This document shows, piece by piece, positions 1-50,020 of a stretch of DNA of 64,000 nt. The notes below the pieces were generated by a model. The model saw nothing but the letters and a program-made list of their open reading frames with translations. It had not been told where the DNA came from and did no database searches. The DNA is from Escherichia coli (GTDB lineage: Bacteria > Pseudomonadota > Gammaproteobacteria > Enterobacterales > Enterobacteriaceae): the NCBI RefSeq assembly GCF_011045215.1, contig NZ_CP049201.1; one strand, 5' to 3'. How positions within the stretch are numbered: the stretch's first letter is position 1; every line of letters starts with the position of its first letter. A program made the position numbers and the translations under genes.

Positions 1-125
1 AAGCGCACGGTCGAATTAAATTTACCGACACCGTACAGTTAGACGAATTTCGCCGTGCGCTTTCGTGTTGTGTGCCTGCTTTTAACCACGTCAGGCGAGG
101 TGGTATCCTTAAAATCACCACAGTT

Positions 126-701
126 TTAAGGATTCATTAAGCAATGTCGCAACCACCAATAAATCCGCTTAAGAACATGAAAATTGATTACTGGTATAAA
201 GCGCTTACAGTTGTTGGCGCTGCGTTGTTTGTCTTTAATGGAACGTCTTTTTTTGACAGATATCCCGTTGTTCCATTGGGTTTTTTGTCCTCCGGCATCT
301 TTTTTATTGGTTTGGGGGAGTGGATTAATCACCCTCTCAAAGTGAGATTTATTGGTCCTGGGGTTTGGACTCGTGGATATAATCGTTCTTCGTGCGCACT
401 CGGCATCATCTTCGACATACTTGGTTGTTTCCTGATTGTTACAGGAGTCGTCAAGTTCTTCTGATGTAAAACCGCAAATGGGGCACGTAACGGGAATTTT
501 GAAAAGCGTTTCTCCGGGTTCCAGAACAAAATTTTCTGCGGTCTGATTTTGCTTCTCATATTTGTGCTCCGCGTCATTGTGAGAGCACATTCTTATTCTG
601 AGTGCCTGTTTAAACTCACTGAAGCTGAGAGCTTCTTCGCCTTCGGCAAGGCCTTCGAAGTATTCTTCGTAAGCCTTTTCCATGATTGTGTCGAAATCCA
701 T
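126..701 (-). CDS. YdfB/YdfC-like zinc-ribbon ORF, apparently fused or extended reading frame
   Basis: Translation MDFDTIMEKAYEEYFEG...PVTCPICGF matches recalled YdfB and YdfC N-terminal regions in one frame with no stop; downstream half is K/N/R-rich and may be non-coding read-through. Start at 701 overlaps ydfA stop. Confidence 0.3.
   Translation of the reverse strand: MDFDTIMEKAYEEYFEGLAEGEEALSFSEFKQALRIRMCSHNDAEHKYEKQNQTAENFVLEPGETLFKIPVTCPICGFTSEELDDSCNNQETTKYVEDDAECARRTIISTSPNPRTNKSHFERVINPLPQTNKKDAGGQKTQWNNGISVKKRRSIKDKQRSANNCKRFIPVINFHVLKRIYWWLRHCLMNP
144..464 (+). CDS. Small membrane protein, three predicted TM helices; embedded antisense to the 126..701 ORF
   Basis: ATG preceded by AAGGA; translation has three hydrophobic stretches (LTVVGAALFVF, LGFLSSGIFFIGLG, ALGIIFDILGCFLIVTGVV). 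Only one of the two overlapping ORFs is likely real. Confidence 0.3.
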   Translation: MSQPPINPLKNMKIDYWYKALTVVGAALFVFNGTSFFDRYPVVPLGFLSSGIFFIGLGEWINHPLKVRFIGPGVWTRGYNRSSCALGIIFDILGCFLIVTGVVKFF

Positions 702-702
702 A

Positions 703-858
703 TCACTCACCTGAGTTTCTTTCCAGCCAGCGACGGGCACCATTTTCGGTTTTAAACGTTTTGCTTTTGGTATACGTCATCGCGGTGAACGTGCCGTCCT
801 GGTTGGGGAACACGCCACATACCAGAGATTCGCTGTTGCCAAGATCGATAGTATCCAT
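703..858 (-). CDS. ydfA: YdfA-like small prophage protein (51 aa)
   Basis: Internal Met start with GAGG 5 nt upstream; translation MDTIDLGNSESLVCGVFPNQDGTFTAMTYTKSKTFKTENGARRWLERNSGE matches recalled Qin YdfA; sits downstream of dicA as in Qin. Confidence 0.5.
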   Translation of the reverse strand: MDTIDLGNSESLVCGVFPNQDGTFTAMTYTKSKTFKTENGARRWLERNSGE

Positions 859-938
859 GCTGACCTCATTTCCCCTTAACGCCTGGGTAGCGGAACTGTT
901 TGCTGAGAACACCGTGCGGTGTCTTGATGGAAATTAAT

Positions 939-988
939 TTAGAATAATCTAACATGATAGGCAAGTGTTTTTTGTTAGGTTAGTCTAA
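939..988. promoter_or_regulatory. Two TTAG-N6-CTAA palindromic operator-like sites (939..952 and 975..988)
   Basis: ttagaataatctaa and ttaggttagtctaa share the architecture of the site at 1486..1499 in the dicA-dicC intergenic region. Confidence 0.4.
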
Positions 989-1026
989 CAAAAAGAGTGA
1001 GCGCAACTAATCACTTGAAAAGAATG

Positions 1027-1434
1027 TTATTTTATTGATTTATTTTTACGCGCTTTAAGCATTTCTTCGAAGAGTTTGTTGAAGTTTTCTACTCTTGCGC
1101 GCATTTCAGACAGCAAGGCTTCCTGCTCGGAAGATGGAAGAGCATCGAATAATTCGATCAATTCTTTGTGGTTGGGAGTTAGCTCTGTTTCCACATGAAG
1201 TTCTTGTGCAGGCACTGGTGCCTTGTCTTCATCACCAAACATTAGCCATGTAGGTGAGCACTTCAGAGCATCCGCTAAAGCAAACAATCGTTTTCCGACT
1301 GGCTGGGTTTCGTCTCTTTCCCATTGTGAAATTGTGACGTGAGCAACTCCAGCGAGGCGCGCAGCTTCTCGTTGTGTTAAGCGTAATTCTTTTCGTCGCG
1401 CCAGAACTCGCTGGCCTAGGGTTCTTGTATCCAT
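1027..1434 (-). CDS. dicA: DicA-family HTH (Cro/C1-type) prophage repressor, 135 aa
   Basis: Translation ...LTQREAARLAGVAHVTISQWERDETQPVGKRLFALADALKCSPTWLMFGDEDK...MRARVENFNKLFEEMLKAR matches recalled DicA in length and motifs; divergent from a Cro-like gene. Confidence 0.85.
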   Translation of the reverse strand: MDTRTLGQRVLARRKELRLTQREAARLAGVAHVTISQWERDETQPVGKRLFALADALKCSPTWLMFGDEDKAPVPAQELHVETELTPNHKELIELFDALPSSEQEALLSEMRARVENFNKLFEEMLKARKNKSIK

Positions 1435-1511
1435 AGTTAGGTAATTCTAATTTTTCTTGACTTAGGTATCCCGCGCACAATAATGTTAGAAAAGTCTAAC
1501 AAGAGGGGGCT
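1435..1511. promoter_or_regulatory. Divergent dicA/dicC promoter-operator region with TTAG-N6-CTAA palindrome at 1486..1499
   Basis: Intergenic 77 bp between divergent repressor genes; ttagaaaagtctaa palindrome; TTGACT (1459..1464) -35-like hexamer. Confidence 0.5.
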
Positions 1512-1742
1512 TTGATGCTTAAAGTTGACGCAATTACTTTTTTTGGCAGCAAAACAAAGCTTGCCAATGCCGCAGGAGTGAGACTGGCAAGTGTTGCTGC
1601 TTGGGGGATACTGGTTCCTGAAGGTCGCGCGATGCGTCTACAGGAGGCATCTGGCGGGGAGCTTCAGTATGATCCCAAAGTTTATGACGAATATCGTAAG
1701 ACGAAGCGGACGGGGCGGTTGAACAATGAAAATCACTCCTGA
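1512..1742 (+). CDS. dicC: DicC-like Cro-type regulator, 76 aa
   Basis: Translation ...FGSKTKLANAAGVRLASVAAWG...EGRAMRLQEASGGELQYDPKVYDEYRK matches recalled DicC; divergent from dicA. Confidence 0.75.
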   Translation: MMLKVDAITFFGSKTKLANAAGVRLASVAAWGILVPEGRAMRLQEASGGELQYDPKVYDEYRKTKRTGRLNNENHS

Positions 1743-2247
1743 ACAGGCTCGTGAGGCTCTGGATGCCTGGATATGTCGACCAGGAATGACACAGGAGCAG
1801 GCGACGATATTAATCACTGAAGCATTCTGGGCTTTGAAAGAGCGCCCGAACATCGATGTTCAGCGTGTCACATATGAAGGTGGCGCGGTTGATCAGCGAG
1901 CGCTTAGCGTTAATCGAGTGAAGATATTCGAACGCTGGAAGGCTATCGACACCAGGGATAAGCGTGAAAAGTTCACAGCGCTAGTGCCTGCAATTATGGA
2001 GGCTATCCGGATTAGTGATTTCAGGTTGTATCGTGAGATCAGTGATGGAAAAAGTATTACGTACATGATCGCCGGGTTAAATAAAGAATATGGCGATGTG
2101 GTGGAATCTGGACTGCTTTTTGCAGATCCTGCCGTTGTAGATCGTGAAACTGACGAACTTATAGAAAAAGCAATTGCTTTCAAGCTTGCGTATCGACAGC
2201 AATACCAACAAAAAGCTGGATGGAATTATGAGTCTTCTTTTTGCTGA
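1726..2247 (+). CDS. Hypothetical early-region protein (cII-position), 173 aa
   Basis: ORF between cro-like gene and replication initiator, overlapping both by a few codons; no motif recognised. Confidence 0.5.
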   Translation: MKITPEQAREALDAWICRPGMTQEQATILITEAFWALKERPNIDVQRVTYEGGAVDQRALSVNRVKIFERWKAIDTRDKREKFTALVPAIMEAIRISDFRLYREISDGKSITYMIAGLNKEYGDVVESGLLFADPAVVDRETDELIEKAIAFKLAYRQQYQQKAGWNYESSFC

Positions 2248-3193
2248 ACGCCCACTGGTTATAAACACGCAGCTGGCAATGAAAATCGGCTTAAACGAAG
2301 CCATTGTTTTGCAACAACTGCACTACTGGTTGAGAGATACCAACTCCGGTATGGAATGTGATGGTGTTCGCTGGATTTATAACACAACGGAACAATGGCT
2401 GGAACAGTTCCCATTCTGGTCAGAGTCAACGTTAAAACGCGCGTTTGCAAGTCTGAAAACGCTGGGGCTTTTGCGTTGTGAAAAGCTCAATAAATCAAAG
2501 CGCGATATGACCAATTTCTACACGATCAACTATGGGAGCGAGCTTTTAGATGGTGGCAAATTGAACGAATCCATCGGTTCAAAATGCGCCGCTCCATCAG
2601 GTCAAAATGACACGATGGAAGAGGTCAAAATGAAACGCTCCATTGGTTCAAAACGACCCAATGTCATCGGGTCAAAATGGCCTGATGATCTTACAGAGAA
2701 TACAACAGAGATTACTACAGAGAATAAAAACACTTTTCGTCCGGAAGCTTCGCAACCGGACCCGCAGACGACTGAACAGGATTTTTTAACCCGGAACCCC
2801 GACGCGGTTGTGTTTAGTGTGAAAAAACGCCAGTGGGGTAGCAGGGAGGATTTGGCGTGTGCGCAGTGGATTTGGGGGCGGATCGTGAACCTTTACGAAC
2901 AGGCTGCCAGCGACGATGGAGAGATCATGCGACCAAAAGAGCCTAACTGGACAGCCTGGGCCAATGACGTGCGCACAATGCGGATGCTGGATGGCAGAAG
3001 CCACAGACAAATTTGCGAAATGTTTGGTCGGGTACAGCGGGATCCATTCTGGGTAAAAAACATCATGAGCCCGTCAAAACTCCGCGAAAAATGGGACGAA
3101 CTGGTCATCCGCCTGGGACGTTCACCTGTACAGCGTTGTGTGAATCATATTTCTGAACCGGATACAGAAATTCCGCCTGGTTTCAGAGGATAA
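2228..3193 (+). CDS. Phage replication initiator (lambda O-like), contains internal origin iterons
   Basis: Internal ATG at 2228 (M19 of ORF 2174..3193); gene contains five 23-bp-spaced iterons plus an AT-rich tract, the hallmark of O-type initiators. Confidence 0.6.
   Translation: MSLLFAERPLVINTQLAMKIGLNEAIVLQQLHYWLRDTNSGMECDGVRWIYNTTEQWLEQFPFWSESTLKRAFASLKTLGLLRCEKLNKSKRDMTNFYTINYGSELLDGGKLNESIGSKCAAPSGQNDTMEEVKMKRSIGSKRPNVIGSKWPDDLTENTTEITTENKNTFRPEASQPDPQTTEQDFLTRNPDAVVFSVKKRQWGSREDLACAQWIWGRIVNLYEQAASDDGEIMRPKEPNWTAWANDVRTMRMLDGRSHRQICEMFGRVQRDPFWVKNIMSPSKLREKWDELVIRLGRSPVQRCVNHISEPDTEIPPGFRG
2570..2679 (+). repeat. Origin iterons: five copies of ~TCCATCGGTTCAAAATG at ~23-bp spacing, followed by AT-rich tract 2690..2740
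   Basis: Copies begin at 2570, 2593, ~2616, 2639, ~2663; then acagagaatacaacagagattactacagagaataaaaac. Confidence 0.6.
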
Positions 3194-3233
3194 GTTTTGA
3201 TTTCAGGTCATGAGGTAATTTTAAGGGGGACTT

Positions 3234-3635
3234 GTGGCAAAAGTTTTTACACAAGAAGAGCGGGAAAAAATTAAAGGGCAGGTGGTGGAACTCGTGCGCC
3301 AGAGCGGTCGTGAGACGTTACGGCAACTGGAAGCTAAAACAGGTGCGACTAGATATCTGATGAGCGTTCTTGCCAGAGAGCTGGTAGCCAGTGGCGATGT
3401 ATACAACTCCGGCTACGGGTTATTCCCGTCTGAACAGGCGCGTAAGGACTGGCAAAACGCCCGCAAAAAACTATCGAGGGCAAAGGTGAAGAAAACAGCT
3501 GTGGTTGATCCGGACCTTATCTGGTCGTTACCTGATGGAGAAATACGTCGCTACGACAGTCGCCTAAACATAATCTGTCGCGAGTGCCGGATGAGTGAAG
3601 TTATGCAGCGCATACTGGCATTTTATCAGGGATAA
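3234..3635 (+). CDS. Hypothetical phage protein (replication-region, P-position), 133 aa
   Basis: ORF with GGGGGA RBS-like sequence upstream; no motif recognised. Confidence 0.45.
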   Translation: MAKVFTQEEREKIKGQVVELVRQSGRETLRQLEAKTGATRYLMSVLARELVASGDVYNSGYGLFPSEQARKDWQNARKKLSRAKVKKTAVVDPDLIWSLPDGEIRRYDSRLNIICRECRMSEVMQRILAFYQG

Positions 3636-3831
3636 TGTTAGGTATTTTAGACGTTACTAGATTAAAAAGCATTAGTTCAGGAGTGAATTGACATTCTCAT
3701 TTTTCATGGCACAGGGTAGATCTGGCGTGGTTGTCCGCTTTGTGCCAGAAGCGGACATAGCAGGTGCCAGATGCATTTGTTATTCTTCATTGAATTGAGC
3801 AGTATCCTTAACAGGAACTCTGAATACATAA

Positions 3832-4470
3832 ATGAAGATGAAAAACATGTCTGAAGTGTTGACCCAAGAAAAGCTTATTTTTGTTGCCCAGAGACTAAAG
3901 GCCCTCGCGCAGTCAGGCCTGACCTATTCAAAAGACGTCTTTGACAAGGAACGCTATGAAGCCTTGCGTGAAATTGCCGCTGGACTGCTGAGTTCGCAGT
4001 TTGATATTAGCCGCAATGATTTGTTTCATGTATCGGAAACGGGTTACGCGACGCCCAAAACAGATGTGCGTGCGTTTATCCTGCGTAATAATCGTATTCT
4101 GATGGTGAAAGAGGCTGCAGATGGATTATGGAGTCTTCCTGGCGGATGGGCAGATGTTGGAGATACACCTTCTGAAGCTGTGCGTCGAGAGGTCGAAGAA
4201 GAAACCGGATTAAAAGTCAGAGTGACTAAACTATTGGGAGTTTGGGATCGTAATCTTCACGGCCATCCGCCTTTACCCTGGCATGTTTACAAGCTGATTT
4301 TTCTCTGTGAAGAAGTAGGTGGCAGCCTGTCAATCAGCCATGAGTCACTCGATGCTGATTTTTTTGATGTCAACGACCTGCCTGAATTGTCGCTTTCAAG
4401 AATTGTGCCTGAGCAGATTGCTGTCAGCCTGAGAGTAGCGAAAGGTGATGAAAAAACATGGTTTGATTAA
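3832..4470 (+). CDS. NUDIX hydrolase with N-terminal extension (ADP-ribose pyrophosphatase-like)
   Basis: Nudix box visible: GGWADVGDTPSEAVRREVEEETGL; ~90 aa N-terminal domain as in ADP-ribose pyrophosphatases. Confidence 0.8.
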   Translation: MKMKNMSEVLTQEKLIFVAQRLKALAQSGLTYSKDVFDKERYEALREIAAGLLSSQFDISRNDLFHVSETGYATPKTDVRAFILRNNRILMVKEAADGLWSLPGGWADVGDTPSEAVRREVEEETGLKVRVTKLLGVWDRNLHGHPPLPWHVYKLIFLCEEVGGSLSISHESLDADFFDVNDLPELSLSRIVPEQIAVSLRVAKGDEKTWFD

Positions 4471-4493
4471 CTTTCTTCTGCAACCATTAAGGA

Positions 4494-5138
4494 ATGGCAA
4501 TGATATTCAACGCTAAGGGTTTTTTATTCGATATGGACGGTACGCTGGTTGATTCAACAGCCGTAGTGGAAAACGTCTGGAGAGATTTTTGTGCAGAATA
4601 CGGTCTTGATTCTCAGGCTGTGATTGCTTACGCACACGGGCGGCAAACGATTGATACACTAACGCATTTTATTGGTGCAGGTGAGAAAACCAATAAAATC
4701 GCGGCCTCACTCGAAGAGGTTGAAATCAACACGACAGAAGGCGTTACTGAAGTAAAAGGGGCCGCTGCACTCTTATCAAAACTGCCACCGGATAGCTGGG
4801 CACTTGTCACTTCTGCAGGCAGAATGCTTGCCGAAAACAGGATGAAAGCGGCTAATCTCCCCTTACCCAGAGTAATGGTGTGTGCAGAAGATGTAATGAC
4901 GGGAAAACCAAGTCCCGAGGGTTACATCAAAGCAGCTTTGGCTTTGGGCCTTGAGCCTGGTGAATGCGTGGTATTTGAGGATGCATCTGCGGGTATAAAA
5001 GCAGGGCTGGCAAGTGGAGCTTCGGTAATAGCTGTTCAGCCTGACGCTCTGGGATCATCTGAAGCCCATGCCGTCAGCGAACTGTCTGACATTATGGTCA
5101 AGATTTCCGGAGAACGTTTCAATATCATCTGTGGTTAA
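4494..5138 (+). CDS. HAD-superfamily (subfamily IA) hydrolase/phosphatase
   Basis: HAD motif I FDMDGTLVDS near N-terminus; C-terminal motifs (VVFEDASAGIKAG). Confidence 0.8.
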   Translation: MAMIFNAKGFLFDMDGTLVDSTAVVENVWRDFCAEYGLDSQAVIAYAHGRQTIDTLTHFIGAGEKTNKIAASLEEVEINTTEGVTEVKGAAALLSKLPPDSWALVTSAGRMLAENRMKAANLPLPRVMVCAEDVMTGKPSPEGYIKAALALGLEPGECVVFEDASAGIKAGLASGASVIAVQPDALGSSEAHAVSELSDIMVKISGERFNIICG

Positions 5139-5687
5139 TCACGTTACACAATACGCATCAATGGACGCTGAGTAGTTCGCGAGTTTTAAACTTCCAACGT
5201 CCGCTTTTCGCTCAAAGCGGACTAGAAGGTTAGCTTGTATCGGACTTTGCGTATTAAATGACTAGTGGTTGAGCCCCATTTCCACAGAAAAAATCAGAGA
5301 AACTATACCCAATAGTTGTATTGAATCACTGACGAGACAGCCTCATATTCATCAGGACTGGTGTACGTCCAATACAGGAGGTTGTGGTGCTGGTTCTCAA
5401 ATGTGCGCTGGCTATTACGGCTGTAATGGCGATTTATTGTCTTGCTATTGTTCTTATGGATCGCCTTTCTGACTGATTTCATATTGGCGAGGTAACGGTA
5501 GTTAAGTAGAATGGCTGCGGGTGCTTGAGGCTATCTGCCTCGGGCATGAACACCAACGGCAGATAGAGAAAAGCCCCAGTTAACATTACGCGTCCTGCAA
5601 GACGCTTAACATTAATCTGAGGCCAATTTCATGCTAGACACATGTAGGTTAGCCTCTTACGTGCCGAAAGGCAAGGAGAAGCAGGCT

Positions 5688-5843
5688 ATGAAGCAGCAAA
5701 AGGCGATGTTAATCGCCCTGATCGTCATCTGTTTAACCGTCATAGTGACGGCACTGGTAACGAGGAAAGACCTCTGCGAGGTACGAATCCGAACCGGCCA
5801 GACGGAGGTCGCTGTCTTCACAGCTTACGAACCTGAGGAGTAA
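5688..5843 (+). CDS. hokD: Hok/Gef-family type I toxin (HokD/RelF-like), 51 aa
   Basis: Translation MKQQKAMLIALIVICLTVIVTALVTRKDLCEVRIRTGQTEVAVFTAYEPEE matches recalled HokD; in-frame upstream extension from 5631 is mok-like; sok antisense expected ~5600..5700 on minus strand. Confidence 0.85.
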   Translation: MKQQKAMLIALIVICLTVIVTALVTRKDLCEVRIRTGQTEVAVFTAYEPEE

Positions 5844-5911
5844 GAGACCCGGCGAGGGATAAATCCCTCGCCACCTCTGATGTGGCAGGCATCCTCAACG
5901 CACCCGCACTT

Positions 5912-5939
5912 AACCCGCTTCGGCGGGTTTTTGTTTTTA
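5912..5939 (+). terminator. Rho-independent terminator of hok mRNA
   Basis: Hairpin acccgcttcggcgggt followed by tttttgttttt; preceded by a second hairpin 5851..5872. Confidence 0.6.
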
Positions 5940-6059
5940 TTTTCAACGCGTTTGAAGTTCTGGACGGTGCCGGAATAGAATCAAAAATACTTAAGTAGCG
6001 CGCAGGGATAAGAGGGATGGTCCCTTAAAGGGGAGAGCTAATTATCCGGAAGGATTCTG

Positions 6060-6311
6060 ATGATGAACATCGAAGAACTGCGTAAAATTTTTTGTGAAGA
6101 TGGCCTCTATGCTGTGTGCGTTGAAAATGGAAACATTGTTAGTCATTACCGCATTCTGTGTTTGCGAAAGAATGGGGCTGCGTTAATTAATTTTATGGAT
6201 GCTCGGGTCACGGACGGATTTATCTTGCGCGAAGGTGAGTTTGTCACTTCATTACAGGCACTGAAAGAGATCGGAATAAAAGCAGGCTTTTCAGCTTTTG
6301 CAGAAGAATAA
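6060..6311 (+). CDS. rem: Rem-like small prophage protein, 83 aa
   Basis: 83-aa ORF with GGAAGGA RBS upstream; position after hokD as rem in Qin; length matches recalled Rem. Confidence 0.55.
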   Translation: MMNIEELRKIFCEDGLYAVCVENGNIVSHYRILCLRKNGAALINFMDARVTDGFILREGEFVTSLQALKEIGIKAGFSAFAEE

Positions 6312-6377
6312 ACTCATCTACAATCTTGCGCGGGGCTGAACTCCCGCTGAGTAACACCGTGCCACCGGAGAAAACCG

Positions 6378-6656
6378 ATGGCACGCAACGTAAAATATTA
6401 CAATTCTGATAATTCGCCCGTTCTTGCCTGCACGCACGAGCGGTATTCTCACGCATTCAAGTCTGAATGGTTCCAGCACCCTCCATGCACTGAAGAGCAG
6501 GCTGAATGGATAATTCAGTGTTACCGCAGGCGCGGATACGAGGTTAAGAAAGCCCTTAGTCTCGACTACCGTCACTGGATAATCTCAGTCAGATTGCCTT
6601 ACTCCGAACGCCCACCGCGTCCGTCCCGTACATTCCAGCAACGCATCTGGAGGTAA
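6378..6656 (+). CDS. Hypothetical nin-region protein, 92 aa
   Basis: ORF with GGAG RBS upstream; Cys/His-containing; no family assigned. Confidence 0.4.
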   Translation: MARNVKYYNSDNSPVLACTHERYSHAFKSEWFQHPPCTEEQAEWIIQCYRRRGYEVKKALSLDYRHWIISVRLPYSERPPRPSRTFQQRIWR

Positions 6657-6657
6657 C

Positions 6658-7707
6658 GTGCGGGTATTACTTCGACCTGTTCTGGTACCGGAACTCGGGC
6701 TGGTGGTCGTTAAGCCGGGCCGTGAATCCATGCCGGTATTCCACAATACCCGGGTACTGGTGGAGCCGGAACCGAAAAGCATGCGTAATCTGCCGTCCGG
6801 GATCGTTCCTGCCGTTCGCCAGCCGCTGGTGGAAGACAAAACATTGCTGCCGTTTTTCAGTAATGCACGGGTAATTCGTGCTGCTGGTGGTGCTGGTGCA
6901 TTGTCTGACTGGCTGTTGCGCCATATTAAATCCTGCCAGTGGCCACACGGCGATTATCATCACAGCGAAACCGTTATTCACCGTTATGGTACCGGCGCAA
7001 TGGTGTTGTGCTGGCACTGCGACAACCAGCTGCGTGACCAGACATCCGAATCACTCGAGCAACTTGCTCATCAAAACCTGTCAGCATGGATGATTGACGT
7101 CATCGGTCACGCAATAAGCGGTACGCAGGAGCGTGAATTATCTCTGGCTGAATTATCCTGGTGGGCGGTCCGCAATCAGGTGGCGGACGCGCTACCGGAA
7201 GCGGTATTACGTCGTTCGCTGGGGTTGCGTGCGGAAAAAATCCGCTCCATGTACCGTGAAAGCGACATCGTACCGGGAGAGCAGACCGCCACCAGCATAC
7301 TGAAACAGCGCACAAAAAATCTTGCGCCGCTGCCTCACGCCCACCAGCAACAGAACCCACCACAGGAAAAGACGGTGGTCAGCATTGCCGTTGATCCTGA
7401 GTCTCCGGAATCTTTCATGAAACGACCTAAACGTCGCCGCTGGGTTAATGAAAAGTACACGCGCTGGGTTAAGACACAGCCGTGTGCATGTTGTGGAAAG
7501 CCCGCTGATGATCCCCACCACCTGATAGGCCACGGTCAGGGGGGAATGGGTACAAAAGCGCATGACCTCTTTGTGTTGCCTTTGTGCAGAAAGCATCACG
7601 ACGAGCTGCATGCGGATACCGTGGCATTTGAAGAGAAGTATGGCTCCCAGCTGGAGCTGATATTTCGTTTTATCGATCGTGCGCTGGCAATTGGCGTGCT
7701 GGCCTGA
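6658..7707 (+). CDS. ydfU: DUF968-family prophage protein (YdfU-like), 349 aa
   Basis: C-terminal CACCGKPADDPHHL...CRKHHDELH zinc-binding-like motifs as recalled for YdfU/DUF968; position before Q as in Qin. Confidence 0.7.
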   Translation: MRVLLRPVLVPELGLVVVKPGRESMPVFHNTRVLVEPEPKSMRNLPSGIVPAVRQPLVEDKTLLPFFSNARVIRAAGGAGALSDWLLRHIKSCQWPHGDYHHSETVIHRYGTGAMVLCWHCDNQLRDQTSESLEQLAHQNLSAWMIDVIGHAISGTQERELSLAELSWWAVRNQVADALPEAVLRRSLGLRAEKIRSMYRESDIVPGEQTATSILKQRTKNLAPLPHAHQQQNPPQEKTVVSIAVDPESPESFMKRPKRRRWVNEKYTRWVKTQPCACCGKPADDPHHLIGHGQGGMGTKAHDLFVLPLCRKHHDELHADTVAFEEKYGSQLELIFRFIDRALAIGVLA

Positions 7708-7709
7708 TT

Positions 7710-8069
7710 TTGTGGAGAAAGTTGATGCGTGATATGTATGAAGTTTTAGACCGCTGGGGAGCGTGGGCTGCAGCAGATAACAGTGGTGTGGACTGGCAGC
7801 CGATAGCAGCAGGCTTTAAGGGGCTTTTACCTCATGGTAAAAAAATACGCCTTCAGTGTGATGATGATGAAGGCATCATGATAGACGGCTGTGTTGCCCG
7901 CCTGTGTAAGTATAAACCAGACGAATATGAGCTGATCATTGCTCACTTCGTTATAGGTATTTCACTGCGTTCTATTGCGAAGAGACGCAGATGCTCAGAT
8001 GGAACAATCCGGAAGCAATTGCAGACTGCGTTAGGTTTCATTAATGGGGTTATGTACATGCTCAAGTAA
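7710..8069 (+). CDS. Phage antitermination protein Q-like, 119 aa
   Basis: Small basic protein with Cys cluster and C-terminal HTH-like segment (IAHFVIGISLRSIAKRRRCSDGTIRKQL), at the canonical Q position upstream of the lysis cassette. Confidence 0.6.
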   Translation: MWRKLMRDMYEVLDRWGAWAAADNSGVDWQPIAAGFKGLLPHGKKIRLQCDDDEGIMIDGCVARLCKYKPDEYELIIAHFVIGISLRSIAKRRRCSDGTIRKQLQTALGFINGVMYMLK

Positions 8070-9288
8070 TATTTGGCATTAATTTAAATAAAATACCGAT
8101 GATGCCTATGAATGTAGGCATCCATGCTAGTGATAATAAACTGTCAAGCACCTTATGACAAAAATCCTCATTGTCATTTAATTTTTTAATAGCCTCTTCT
8201 AAGCTCTCTTTAAGATCGCTGGTGTCATCCTTTATTCTATATCTTAATTGTCCAAAAAGTATTTCTTTAGAGTGTGAAATACGAGCAAGTTGTTTTTTTT
8301 GTGACACAATCATTGCAGATGTTATTATTGCTGTGATAATCAATCCAATTAAAGCAATAATCCAATCAGCTTTTGTTGTTAATTTGAAAATAGCAATTGA
8401 ACCAGCTAGTGAAATAGGTATTGCAAGAGCTTTGTTAGAAATTTCTGAAATTATTTTTGACAGTTTTTCTGAGTAATCGAGTTCAGCATCAACAACTTCT
8501 TTCCTTGCTTTATGAAAAGAAAATGCCGATATATAAGCAGCTAAGTTGTTCGTATAAAGTTCGCATATGAAATCCCACTTGTTAATTAACTCGACAAAGG
8601 AATTTCCATTTTTATTAACATACTCAATAACTGTGTTTCTGAAAGTGTTAATCTTTTCAATGTGATGGGCATCAGTAGTAGCTTCACTACTTACTAATGT
8701 TTTAACTAACTGAGTATTTACTGTTTTATCATTAAAAATTTCTTCTGTAATATTTGTTTCAATTACAGCAGAAGAAGATTTAGACTCTGAGTTTAAAATA
8801 AAGACTAAACGATAAAATGTACCTTTGCTATCTTTTTTTATATCATGGAAATGAGCAAGCATGGAAAGAGCATTGATTAGCTCACAAATGTCCTCAATTT
8901 TTTGGATATAAGAAGGTTTTGGTGTTTCTAATGAATAGAAATCATCCTCTATAATATAGAAATACTCTGGCATTATGCCTTTCTTGAGCGTGTTTATTTT
9001 TACAAACTCGTTTTTATTTTTATAAAAACGATTCGCACTTCCTTGTGAAATTTTAAACGAGTATGTAAGAAAATTTCCCTTTTCAGGAAAGTCTTCATAA
9101 TCATAAATTAAATGACCATCCACCTCTATTTCGTCAGCTGTACCAGCTTGAAAAGTAGGGTTCAAAATTCTTTTGAACAATGATTTTACGTCTGCATTAT
9201 AAGCTATACGCGCAGAAAACTTAGCCCCGTCAAAATGAGGATAGCTTGATAATCTATACAGATTAACTATTATACTAAAATCATTCAT
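8062..9288 (-). CDS. Membrane protein, 408 aa, three predicted TM helices in C-terminal third; candidate effector of two-gene cassette
   Basis: ATG overlaps upstream gene stop (ATGA at 9285..9288); hydrophobic helices (ALAIPISLAGSIAIFKL, WIIALIGLIITAIITSAMIV, LLSLAWMPTFIGIIGILFKLM); AT-rich codon usage. Confidence 0.7.
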   Translation of the reverse strand: MNDFSIIVNLYRLSSYPHFDGAKFSARIAYNADVKSLFKRILNPTFQAGTADEIEVDGHLIYDYEDFPEKGNFLTYSFKISQGSANRFYKNKNEFVKINTLKKGIMPEYFYIIEDDFYSLETPKPSYIQKIEDICELINALSMLAHFHDIKKDSKGTFYRLVFILNSESKSSSAVIETNITEEIFNDKTVNTQLVKTLVSSEATTDAHHIEKINTFRNTVIEYVNKNGNSFVELINKWDFICELYTNNLAAYISAFSFHKARKEVVDAELDYSEKLSKIISEISNKALAIPISLAGSIAIFKLTTKADWIIALIGLIITAIITSAMIVSQKKQLARISHSKEILFGQLRYRIKDDTSDLKESLEEAIKKLNDNEDFCHKVLDSLLSLAWMPTFIGIIGILFKLMPNIT

Positions 9289-10451
9289 TCTTTATCTTCT
9301 TCATTACTCGGGTTATCAGTTTCTTTCAACGCTCTTCTTATCTTAGTTAATGCTTCAACAGGCAAATTATTAAATGTTAGGCTTTGGTTTTCGTCATCAT
9401 AATATATTTTAGCATCAGTTGTGACACCGAGTAAATCCTTGTCGAAGTGAAAGCTCAATGATGGGGTTTTATATATCACATTGCGGATTTTATCTAAGGA
9501 GTTTTTATTGATTACGAACTCTGATGGGATTCTGACTTCCTCACTATTGAGGTGTTTCATTAATTTATCAACAAGTTCTGTTTTTTCTTCCTCTTTTAAA
9601 TAGGACATATGGCCTGAAGCAAGCGATTCGATATCAGAAAGCCTTGCAGAGTGCTCGTTGTCAAATTGCTTTTCTAAGTATTTGATAACATCATTTCTAA
9701 ATGACTCTGCTTGATTTTTTAAAAGAGGTTCTTTCTTAAAGAAACGCCTTATTTCATCTGGTAACTTACGGGTTGCGCCTGCTGAAGCAATCCCCTTGTC
9801 ACATCCTAATGCTGCTATAAAATATGCTGCCGCTGACTGTCCCGTAGTTTTGCTTATAAAGCTTAGATAACTTAAGTCTGTTTTTTTTAAATCATCTGCT
9901 TTTTGGTATTCTTCATAATATCTGAAATTTATTTTTGCTGCTTGGTTAATATTACCAAGTTCTAAGTGAATCATTTCCTCTGGCTCTAAATTTTCACTAA
10001 TAGTTACGCCATTAGTTTTTTTGATCATTGTAACCAATAGATAACGGAAACCAGATAAAATATAATCAGTAAAAACAACATATCCTCCAGAAGCCCAAAT
10101 CTGCTCTTGAGCAGATTTATACATTTGTTTCATAACTTCCTTCGATAATTCAATGAAATCATTTGAAACAGATTGTTGAACTAAAGAGTATTTATGAAAT
10201 AGTTCTGGTATAGGGCCTTGTTTTGTTTTATTTTTAATAAAAACACCATAATGCGCTGAGTTCCCTTTTGAACCATACAAATCAATAACACCGTCTACTA
10301 ATTTTTTTACTATATCATTTGTTTTATCTAGTTCTGTATCACGAAGATTGTATGGTTTGGAGTGATCGAAGTCTTTATTAGATTCTTTTAAGAGCTCATG
10401 AACGATTACGTGGCGTATGCTTGCTTTGCTCATTTTTTTGGTCAATTCCAT
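9285..10451 (-). CDS. NdpA/YejK-like (NA37 family) nucleoid-associated-protein homologue, 388 aa; candidate sensor of two-gene cassette
   Basis: Motif-level resemblance to recalled E. coli YejK: N-terminal IRHVIVHELLK, central GGYVVFTDY...YLLVTMIK...ISENLEP, YLSFISKTTGQSAAAYF, C-terminal SLTFNNLP. AT-rich (~30% G+C in a 60-nt spot check). Confidence 0.75.
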   Translation of the reverse strand: MELTKKMSKASIRHVIVHELLKESNKDFDHSKPYNLRDTELDKTNDIVKKLVDGVIDLYGSKGNSAHYGVFIKNKTKQGPIPELFHKYSLVQQSVSNDFIELSKEVMKQMYKSAQEQIWASGGYVVFTDYILSGFRYLLVTMIKKTNGVTISENLEPEEMIHLELGNINQAAKINFRYYEEYQKADDLKKTDLSYLSFISKTTGQSAAAYFIAALGCDKGIASAGATRKLPDEIRRFFKKEPLLKNQAESFRNDVIKYLEKQFDNEHSARLSDIESLASGHMSYLKEEEKTELVDKLMKHLNSEEVRIPSEFVINKNSLDKIRNVIYKTPSLSFHFDKDLLGVTTDAKIYYDDENQSLTFNNLPVEALTKIRRALKETDNPSNEEDKE

Positions 10452-10551
10452 GCGGTTAAGCTAACAATTGTAAAGAGCATAATAAATTACTAACGCGTAC
10501 GCAAAAACTATCATAATCTGTTAAGAGTGGTTACTTCGCCACACAGCTTAA

Positions 10552-10580
10552 ACCCGCCGTCGAGCGGTTTTTTTGTACCT
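10552..10580 (+). terminator. Candidate late-operon terminator (tR'-like) preceded by candidate late promoter
   Basis: Short GC hairpin cccgccgtcgagcgg followed by ttttttt; upstream TTACTA-N18-TCATAAT promoter-like hexamers at ~10489..10522. Confidence 0.35.
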
Positions 10581-36728: not shown

Positions 36729-37309
36729 TGGCATTCAGAATGAGTGAACAACCACGGACCATAAAAATTTATAATCTGCTGGCCGGAACTAATGAATTTA
36801 TTGGTGAAGGTGACGCATATATTCCACCTCATACAGGTCTGCCAGCAAACAGTACCGATATTGCACCGCCAGATATTCCGGCAGGCTTCGTGGCTGTTTT
36901 CAACAGTGATGAGGCATCGTGGCATCTTGTTGAAGACCATCGGGGTAAAACGGTTTATGACGTGGCTTCCGGCGACGCGTTATTTATTTCTGAACTCGGC
37001 TTATTACCGGAAAATGTCACCTGGTTATCCCCGGAAGGGGAGTTTCAGAAGTGGAACGGCACAGCCTGGGTGAAAGATGCAGAAGCAGAAAAACTGTTCC
37101 GGATCCGGGAGGCGGAAGAAACAAAAAACAACCTGATGCAGGTAGCCAGTGAGCATATTGCGCCACTTCAGGATGCTGTAGATCTGGAAATCGCAACGGA
37201 GGAAGAAAACTCGTTGCTGGAAGCCTGGAAGAAGTATCGGGTGTTGCTGAACCGTGTTGATACATCAACTGCACCTGATATTGAGTGGCCTGTAATACCA
37301 GAAGTTTAA
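36728..37309 (+). CDS. tfa: Tail fibre assembly protein (lambda Tfa-like)
   Basis: 193 aa; TAATG overlap with stf; followed by hairpin agcccgc...gcgggct at 37316..37345. Confidence 0.8.
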
Positions 37310-49705: not shown

Positions 49706-49744
49706 GCTCCGTTTAACATTCATTGAGAAAACTGATGCTACTGT

Positions 49745-49850
49745 GTCAACGATCCGTTATCAGTGCAGGAAAATGCCTGTTAGCGTAAAAGCAAAACACA
49801 AATCTATCCATGCAAGCATTCACCGCCGGTTTACTGGCGGTTTTTTTTTC
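49745..49850 (+). ncRNA. mgrR: Candidate MgrR-like sRNA ending in terminator 49821..49850
   Basis: Intergenic region downstream of dgcZ, divergent context with mgtS; strong hairpin caccgccgg-ttta-ctggcggt followed by nine T; recalled MgrR lies at this locus. Boundaries approximate. Confidence 0.35.
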
Positions 49851-49924
49851 GCCGTCATAAAAATCAGGCCCCTTGTACACAACTGTAACAAGGGGCCGGT
49901 TAGGTGAGGGATTATCTCCGTTCA

Positions 49925-50020
49925 TTAGTCATCCCATTTGTGGCTGAAATACGCGGCCAGAAAACCAGAAAATAAAATTATTCCCAGTACGGCCATAAAA
50001 ACATTCATATTACCCAGCAT
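49925..50020 (-). CDS. mgtS: Small membrane protein MgtS (YneM), 31 aa
   Basis: Reverse-strand translation MLGNMNVFMAVLGIILFSGFLAAYFSHKWDD; terminator hairpin ggccccttgt...acaaggggcc at 49866..49900 on minus strand. Confidence 0.65.
   Translation of the reverse strand: MLGNMNVFMAVLGIILFSGFLAAYFSHKWDD

Follow-up and report, generated by a model that had tools for sequence, protein, structure and literature searches.

Two anti-phage systems built on nucleoid-associated proteins (NAPs) have been reported in 2025-2026, and they are the closest described relatives of a two-gene cassette (genes A and B) that lies between the antiterminator gene Q and the late genes of a prophage in Escherichia coli, within a stretch of 64,000 nucleotides of contig NZ_CP049201.1 (assembly GCF_011045215.1; the whole stretch is referred to as the window). 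The first system, DS-1 (DefensePredictor-discovered system 1, clone D390), is encoded by a gene for WP_000355468.1 (391 aa, NA37) and, after it, one for WP_000150292.1 (404 aa); in MG1655, a clone that included the native upstream region lowered the plating of Bas1, Bas26, Bas3, T3, and T5 by 7.6, 2.7, 1.7, 1.7, and 1.0 logs, respectively (DeWeirdt et al., Science 2026, PMC13092281). The second, PANGU, combines YejK-like NAP sensors with paired effectors (Li et al., bioRxiv 10.64898/2026.04.06.716658, April 2026). Its type II is a bicistronic pair of Pag2A (the NAP) and Pag2B, the latter with an N-terminal acidic "DNA-mimic" ("DMK") domain and a C-terminal transmembrane (TM) domain, and causes abortive infection (Abi) in response to the breakdown of the host chromosome by phage nucleases; an example from E. 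coli (PANGU-Ecu) protects against T4 by 3-4 logs, growth curves are Abi-like, and T4 escapes through mutations in denA (EndoII) (10.64898/2026.04.06.716658). Both genes are required and no toxicity was found for either alone or for the pair; Pag2A-GFP departs from the nucleoid upon T4 infection, the N-terminal domain of Pag2B binds Pag2A with a dissociation constant of 19 nM, and the NAP acts as an activator, not as an antitoxin (10.64898/2026.04.06.716658). The cassette in the window is a divergent member of this recently published family, and its sequence and the analogy with these homologues suggest that it is probably a prophage-borne two-gene anti-phage system of the DS-1/type II PANGU kind, acting by the mechanism proposed below.

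Protein A belongs to the NA37 (NdpA/YejK) family, as an earlier note on this DNA, made from the sequence without database searches, had recognized from several motifs: it matched Pfam NA37 (PF04245) over nearly the full model (E 2.8e-50; residues 16-364 on model positions 1-321 of 325) and the solved YejK structure 9be2_A over its full length (E 6.7e-15). Since the score against the NCBIfam YejK equivalog (NF001557) was 133.2 bits and did not reach the cut-off of 341, A is a paralogue and not the housekeeping YejK. A search of both proteins with hidden Markov models, proposed in the same note, returned nothing of substance from PADLOC (see below) and, from NCBIfam release 20, matches to the two DS-1 equivalog models, with E values around 1e-28: A to NF053868 (DS1_1_antiphage, "nucleoid-associated anti-phage protein"; E 4.9e-28, 98.2 bits, cut-off 330 bits), and B to NF053869 (DS1_2_antiphage; E 8.9e-29, 100.7 bits, cut-off 315 bits). 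By BLASTP, A and B showed approximately 24% (E 3e-11) and 24% (E 2e-10) identity to DS-1A and DS-1B, respectively, and a B-family profile of 37 homologues aligned with DS-1B at an hhalign probability of 96.6% (E 5e-10). These results showed that A and B are homologous to DS-1A and DS-1B, yet lie beyond the DS-1 equivalog boundary. The two proteins have also been touched on by the DefensePredictor study itself, in which Table S10 lists WP_120130707.1 (log-odds 10.3) and the 408-aa hypothetical protein WP_016159279.1 (log-odds 13.0) each as a "predicted novel defense gene", both in clusters separate from DS-1 and outside the tested units (PMC13092281). WP_120130707.1 is exactly the A protein annotated by RefSeq for this cassette in a genome that matches the window at 99.6% identity, and WP_016159279.1 is probably B, judging from its length and an accession adjacent to that of the Q neighbouring the cassette; A is thus already flagged as predicted defence, and B probably too. 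The earlier note had called the module undescribed and had known of no named defence system based on an NA37-like protein; both statements have been overtaken by DS-1 and type II PANGU, and by the listing of A in Table S10. That the pair might belong to an already characterized system, which the note had also considered, applies at the level of the family and not to the allele in the window.

Protein B (408 aa; 8062..9288, minus strand) is a membrane protein, the putative counterpart of Pag2B and DS-1B, and the presumed effector. It matched a protein cluster of 309 sequences at 100% identity and phrog_5023 at E 1e-137; no significant domain was found in Pfam, and no match in a sequence search of the PDB using the B profile. 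An AlphaFold2 (AF2) model, confident (predicted local distance difference test 84.6) and with no known fold, contained an alpha/beta domain at residues 1-180, a helical region up to approximately residue 287, and C-terminal helices at residues 289-302, 306-351, 358-388, and 390-403; a Foldseek search of this model against AFDB50 retrieved uncharacterized family members only, from several proteobacterial classes, with an identical copy in Shigella flexneri. The structure prediction called for in the earlier note yielded a defined N-terminal domain, and the description of this soluble region as free of a recognizable catalytic motif was borne out. Hydropathy indicated segments at residues 287-305 (weak), 303-331 (strong), and 381-405, so that, together with the AF2 helices, the number of TM helices is two to three; the three given in the earlier note are plausible, and the assignment as a membrane protein stood. 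The membrane region (residues 287-405, encoded by 8074..8430, minus strand) comprises a hydrophobic hairpin (approximately 287-328), a basic loop of approximately 55 aa, and a final hydrophobic helix (381-405). An N-in topology is suggested by the positive-inside rule and by the requirement that B reach A, which is cytoplasmic; residues 1-190, the N-terminal alpha/beta domain (coding region 8719..9288, minus strand), are probably the A-binding domain.

In the proposed mechanism, A, as a YejK-like NAP, would reside on chromosomal DNA in the uninfected lysogen and would be set free once an infecting phage breaks down the host chromosome or disrupts it; free A would then bind the cytoplasmic N-terminal domain of B in the inner membrane, and the C-terminal helices of B may damage membrane function, by which the infected cell would stop growing and phage production would be aborted. 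The activity of the window allele, its trigger, and the membrane effect of B are predicted here from homologues: protection is taken from DS-1 and PANGU (PMC13092281, 10.64898/2026.04.06.716658), and the need for two genes, the Abi phenotype, the relocalization of the NAP, and its nanomolar binding to the effector from type II PANGU (10.64898/2026.04.06.716658). The present analysis itself provided the homology to DS-1A and DS-1B, the conservation of the pair, its architecture, and its setting in an accessory hotspot. A DNA-binding sensor paired with a membrane effector that acts by abortive infection, as the earlier note had supposed, agrees with the findings on both homologous systems. The sensing of chromosome damage by a NAP is a very recent idea.

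The association of the two genes was conserved throughout the family. When 1.84 billion representative proteins were searched with a profile, 1012 relatives of B emerged, 577 of them at E ≤ 1e-10, and the best 150 listed were nearly all full-length (approximately 400-430 aa); in the three distant representatives inspected (3/3), an NA37 gene was located directly upstream, abutting or overlapping. Among the 47 IMG/VR contigs carrying B relatives (33-100% identity to B), all had an NA37 gene directly upstream and a convergent Q-family gene immediately downstream (gap of -20 to +79 bp), and the G+C content of the cassette was 0.29-0.37 in every one, compared with approximately 0.50 and 0.47 in the two flanks. 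Identities of the A and B homologues to the window proteins correlated across these viral loci (r = 0.97), and the two genes are therefore inherited as a unit, a value that by itself is no proof of co-evolution between A and B; B diverged faster than A, and Q kept 54-100% identity. The low G+C content (0.29-0.37) was a property of every cassette allele (the window and loci L012-L062) in spite of divergence to 24-35% identity and normal flanks; because it was kept in all of them, AT-richness looks maintained rather than left over from a recent import. Of 5426 complete E. coli genomes, 29 carried the window allele and 106 the DS-1 allele; the copies of each were all at least 99% identical.

Two of the viral loci (L022:3826-4981 and L048:3868-5008) carried an NA37 gene split into two open reading frames (ORFs) next to an intact B, possibly as decayed copies. 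These loci bear on a toxin-antitoxin or addiction module, in which a membrane toxin B would be restrained by A, the prophage stabilized, and protection incidental. Two translationally coupled genes, one of which encodes a membrane protein, would suit such a module, and modules of this type are carried in the same prophage, as hok/sok elsewhere in it shows. On the other hand, a split A beside an intact B argues against B as a toxin that needs A as its antitoxin, as a freed toxin should not be tolerated; A, at 382 aa, is also a large protein from a DNA-binding family, and type II PANGU genes are non-toxic alone or paired, with the NAP as the activator (10.64898/2026.04.06.716658). An addiction module is accordingly regarded as very improbable.

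The longest ORF of gene A (9285..10451, minus strand) encodes 388 aa; since the N-terminus conserved in the homologue alignment begins at Met7 ("MSKASIRHVIVHEL") and the RefSeq annotation of A has 382 aa, the true gene, as far as can be judged from sequence, is most likely 9285..10433 (minus strand; 382 aa), encoding the NA37/YejK-family counterpart of Pag2A and DS-1A and the presumed DNA-bound sensor. The length of 388 aa given previously therefore holds for the ORF and not for the likely protein. The stop codon of A and the start codon of B share four nucleotides (ATGA, 9285..9288), and the 3' ends of B and of the Q ORF (7710..8069, plus strand, convergent with B; phrog_79 "anti-termination protein Q-like", E 9e-46) share 8 bp. 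The neighbouring phage ORFs are all on the plus strand, opposite to A and B: a DUF968/HNH protein and Q in the left flank, and a small ORF, a DNA methyltransferase, holin, endolysin, and Rz in the right flank, both of a lambdoid prophage. The G+C content was 0.29-0.36 over 8000-10550 and 0.47-0.57 on either side. The layout described in the earlier note (two translationally coupled genes on the opposite strand, approximately 30% G+C against approximately 50% around them, and an overlap of 8 bp with Q) was thus reproduced in ORF coordinates, composition, and the identity of Q. Its suggestion to compare related prophages provided the insertion boundaries: homology of Q with sibling prophages stopped at approximately 8038, and cassette-specific DNA extended from approximately 8039 (within the last Q codons) to approximately 10480-10490. 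These boundaries were set against siblings with other cargo because an empty site, in which the Q allele of the window is joined straight to the right flank, was found in no genome searched. By exact-sequence look-up, DS-1 was found to lie between a holin gene and a Phage_antitermQ gene, with a convergent overlap with the latter, and had a G+C content of 0.35; beyond Phage_antitermQ, DUF968, KilA-N, and RusA followed, as in relatives of the window.

Sibling prophages with matching flanks bore different AT-rich, reverse-strand cargo at the Q/late-gene site, which qualifies as what is usually called a defence hotspot. In E. coli DCE7 (NZ_CP090611; L004:2552-3940), the cargo consisted of a DUF6731 protein (Pfam E 2e-10) and a 147-aa protein with four hydrophobic segments, both on the reverse strand (G+C content of 0.32-0.35); DUF6731 is the family labelled RexA by DefenseFinder, and this pair at the Q/late-promoter site is RexAB-like. 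In E. coli SBF22 (L002:2490-3951), a 308-aa soluble protein and a 182-aa protein with four TM helices (G+C content of 0.30-0.31) were present, and in E. coli E21845/O/A (L003:2886-3905), a single 339-aa protein, WP_000357056.1, which is listed as a predicted defence gene in DefensePredictor Table S10 (PMC13092281). The cargo of the latter two had no match in PADLOC or NCBIfam. That the pair is accessory, AT-rich DNA in a variable interval separating Q from the late genes, as proposed in the earlier note, was therefore supported, with other cargo in siblings and the window allele in only 29 of the 5426 genomes; the parallel that the note drew with RexA/RexB fits as well, a RexA-like DUF6731 protein and its partner of four TM segments being found at the same site.

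This variability also argues against a role of the pair in the biology of the prophage itself, for example with A as a chromatin or silencing protein and B as a tether of DNA to the membrane or a modulator of lysis timing. NA37 proteins are DNA-binding nucleoid proteins, and the cassette is fixed beside Q, pR', and the lysis genes in 47/47 viral loci and adjoins a conserved regulatory motif (see below), all of which would suit such a role. Because siblings with the same backbone hold unrelated cargo at this site, however, the phage can complete its life cycle without the cassette; moreover, distant members of the family occur outside prophages (for example, beside pilin genes in L006), and homologous pairs cloned without a prophage protect against unrelated lytic phages. 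A function in the prophage's own cycle is consequently considered quite unlikely.

The right-hand junction of the cassette coincided with a conserved 16-nucleotide motif, TTTTGCGTACGCGTTA (10491..10506, minus strand), with the palindromic core GCGTACGC. It was present in a single copy in the window (0 expected by chance) and, in the form TTTTGCGTACGCRTTA, occurred once in 50 of the 62 loci fetched, DS-1 loci included; in the loci examined, it was located 17-158 nucleotides (mostly 45-80) upstream of the longest ORF of gene A, with a terminator next on the late strand. The segment containing it (10479-10575) was kept even where the cassette proteins had diverged to 24-35% identity. Toward gene A, a -10-like TATTAT (10484..10479, minus strand) was recognized by eye, and a -10-like element stood at a fixed distance from the motif in most alleles. 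On the plus strand, TTACTA (10487-10492) and TATCAT (10509-10514), with a spacing of 16, form a weak candidate promoter around the motif, also by eye. A scan detected a hairpin with a T-run resembling an intrinsic terminator (10556..10575, plus strand), presumed to be the tR' overridden by Q, and this was conserved in sibling prophages and DS-1 loci. Of the late promoter and terminator placed beyond the 5' end of the cassette by the earlier note, the terminator hairpin was thus recovered and the promoter failed the scan. The motif is a candidate Q-binding or late-promoter element, possibly shared with the promoter of the cassette, and we infer that the cassette is inserted between Q and its target, the motif region being a Q-responsive late promoter.

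Several points weigh against assigning the cassette to defence systems of the DS-1/type II PANGU kind. Neither a sigma-70-like site upstream of A nor a late promoter was called by the promoter scan; A and B were well under the NCBIfam cut-offs (98 against 330 and 101 against 315, respectively), with only approximately 24% identity to DS-1; DS-1A carries an N-terminal zinc ribbon, and A is without one; and residues 1-285 of B are, in terms of sequence charge, only mildly acidic (net charge -8, isoelectric point 5.5) for a counterpart of the "DNA-mimic" domain of type II PANGU. PADLOC-DB 2023, a library older than DS-1 and PANGU, gave nothing for A or B apart from one chance match to DrmC (E 0.047). 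Furthermore, the activity of Pag2B-type effectors is not established even in the source preprint (10.64898/2026.04.06.716658).

Some of these points would also fit a homologue of DS-1/PANGU that is inactive or silent in this host, because of silencing by H-NS, a missing promoter, or a trigger that coliphages do not provide. The absence of a sigma-70-like promoter call upstream of A and a G+C content of approximately 0.32, typical of H-NS targets, are in line with silence, as is the finding that only a third of the NAP operons in the PANGU study (four of "a dozen") were protective (10.64898/2026.04.06.716658). Against this, both reading frames are intact, B is identical (100%) to a cluster of 309 member sequences, the 29 E. 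coli carriers are all at least 99% identical, most alleles keep the -10-like element at a fixed spacing from the conserved motif, and DS-1 worked from a native upstream region of the same layout. A silent cassette is therefore judged unlikely, if less so than the two alternatives treated above. All three are less likely than a functional anti-phage system because homologues confer protection when cloned by themselves, the site varies and can be dispensed with, genes of the Pag2 type are non-toxic, and the frames are intact and conserved.

A wider proposal is more doubtful: the Q/late-promoter junction in this lambdoid family might be a dedicated dock for two-gene Abi cassettes of a soluble sensor and a membrane effector (DS-1/type II PANGU alleles down to 24% identity, the RexA-like pair, and others), transcribed back-to-back with pR' across GCGTACGC and convergently into Q, so that induction (loading of Q and early read-through) would turn defence off while the prophage runs through its own lytic cycle. 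The docking site and the coupling to Q are described in neither the DefensePredictor study nor the PANGU preprint, as far as the available text of these sources goes. If the proposal is true, the deep and discrete divergence of alleles would reflect selection for differing triggers or for evasion of phage inhibitors. A fixed Q/pR' site with exchangeable sensor and membrane cargo is a practical place to mine prophage defence genes.

Other features were noted in the window and its relatives. In the same prophage, a hok/sok-type toxin-antisense module was located at 5519-5843, with Rfam sok (RF01794; 115 bits) at 5519-5693 and a Hok-like 70-aa ORF at 5631-5843. Sibling genomes matching positions 1-7700 of the window annotate genes for NUDIX and HAD-family hydrolases; a 214-aa ORF (4494-5138) has the HAD motif "DxDGTL", and a 212-aa ORF (3832-4470) would, by elimination, be the NUDIX gene, in which case the two are morons with metabolic functions that lie ahead of Q in the early-right region. 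Rfam also matched IS009 (37071-37269; 228 bits) and the Hfq-binding small RNA STnc560 (49717-49931; 278 bits), both outside the late region of the prophage. In E. coli AR434 (L001:17320-19219), the cassette of which is 99.6% identical, a reverse transcriptase gene followed by a gene for a SLATT-domain protein beside the prophage integrase looks like a second candidate defence module.

Compared with known systems, A shares the fold family of chromosomal YejK (NdpA), as the full-length alignments with the Pfam model and 9be2 indicated, and differs from it in falling below the equivalog cut-off and in being accessory, AT-rich, phage-borne, and always paired with B. Lambda RexA/RexB resembles the proposed pair as a prophage-encoded soluble sensor and membrane effector acting by abortive infection; no Rex-named family appeared among the PADLOC or Pfam matches of A or B, and the lambda rex genes sit in the immunity region, not beside Q. 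Type I PANGU (Pag1A with the GRel toxSAS Pag1B) uses the same sensor family as A, and its proposed logic, in which a NAP freed from damaged DNA activates an effector through a partner-binding domain, is the one that may apply to the window pair; its effector is, however, soluble (an alarmone synthetase) rather than membrane-borne, and B has no similarity to it. As in type II PANGU, a YejK-like NAP is bicistronic with its effector, and B has the C-terminal TM domain (hydrophobic helices at residues 287-331 and 381-405); membership of the window pair in this type rests on architecture, the comparison with the tested operons being by description. The preprint stresses defence islands, and the word "prophage" is absent from the available part of its text. 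The set of 47 viral loci offers co-inherited A/B pairs ready for comparison, and the window allele and DS-1, at the same site, could together reveal the residues by which NAP and effector recognize each other and the phages seen by each allele. DS-1 differs in the weaker hydrophobic segments of DS-1B, and its defence has been measured by plating, that of the window allele being predicted only. On the other hand, the gene order is common to both, with the NA37 gene first and a membrane protein of approximately 400 aa second, the sizes are close (391/404 aa in DS-1 and 388/408 aa in the window), and AT-richness, prophage site, orientation, and upstream motif are all shared.

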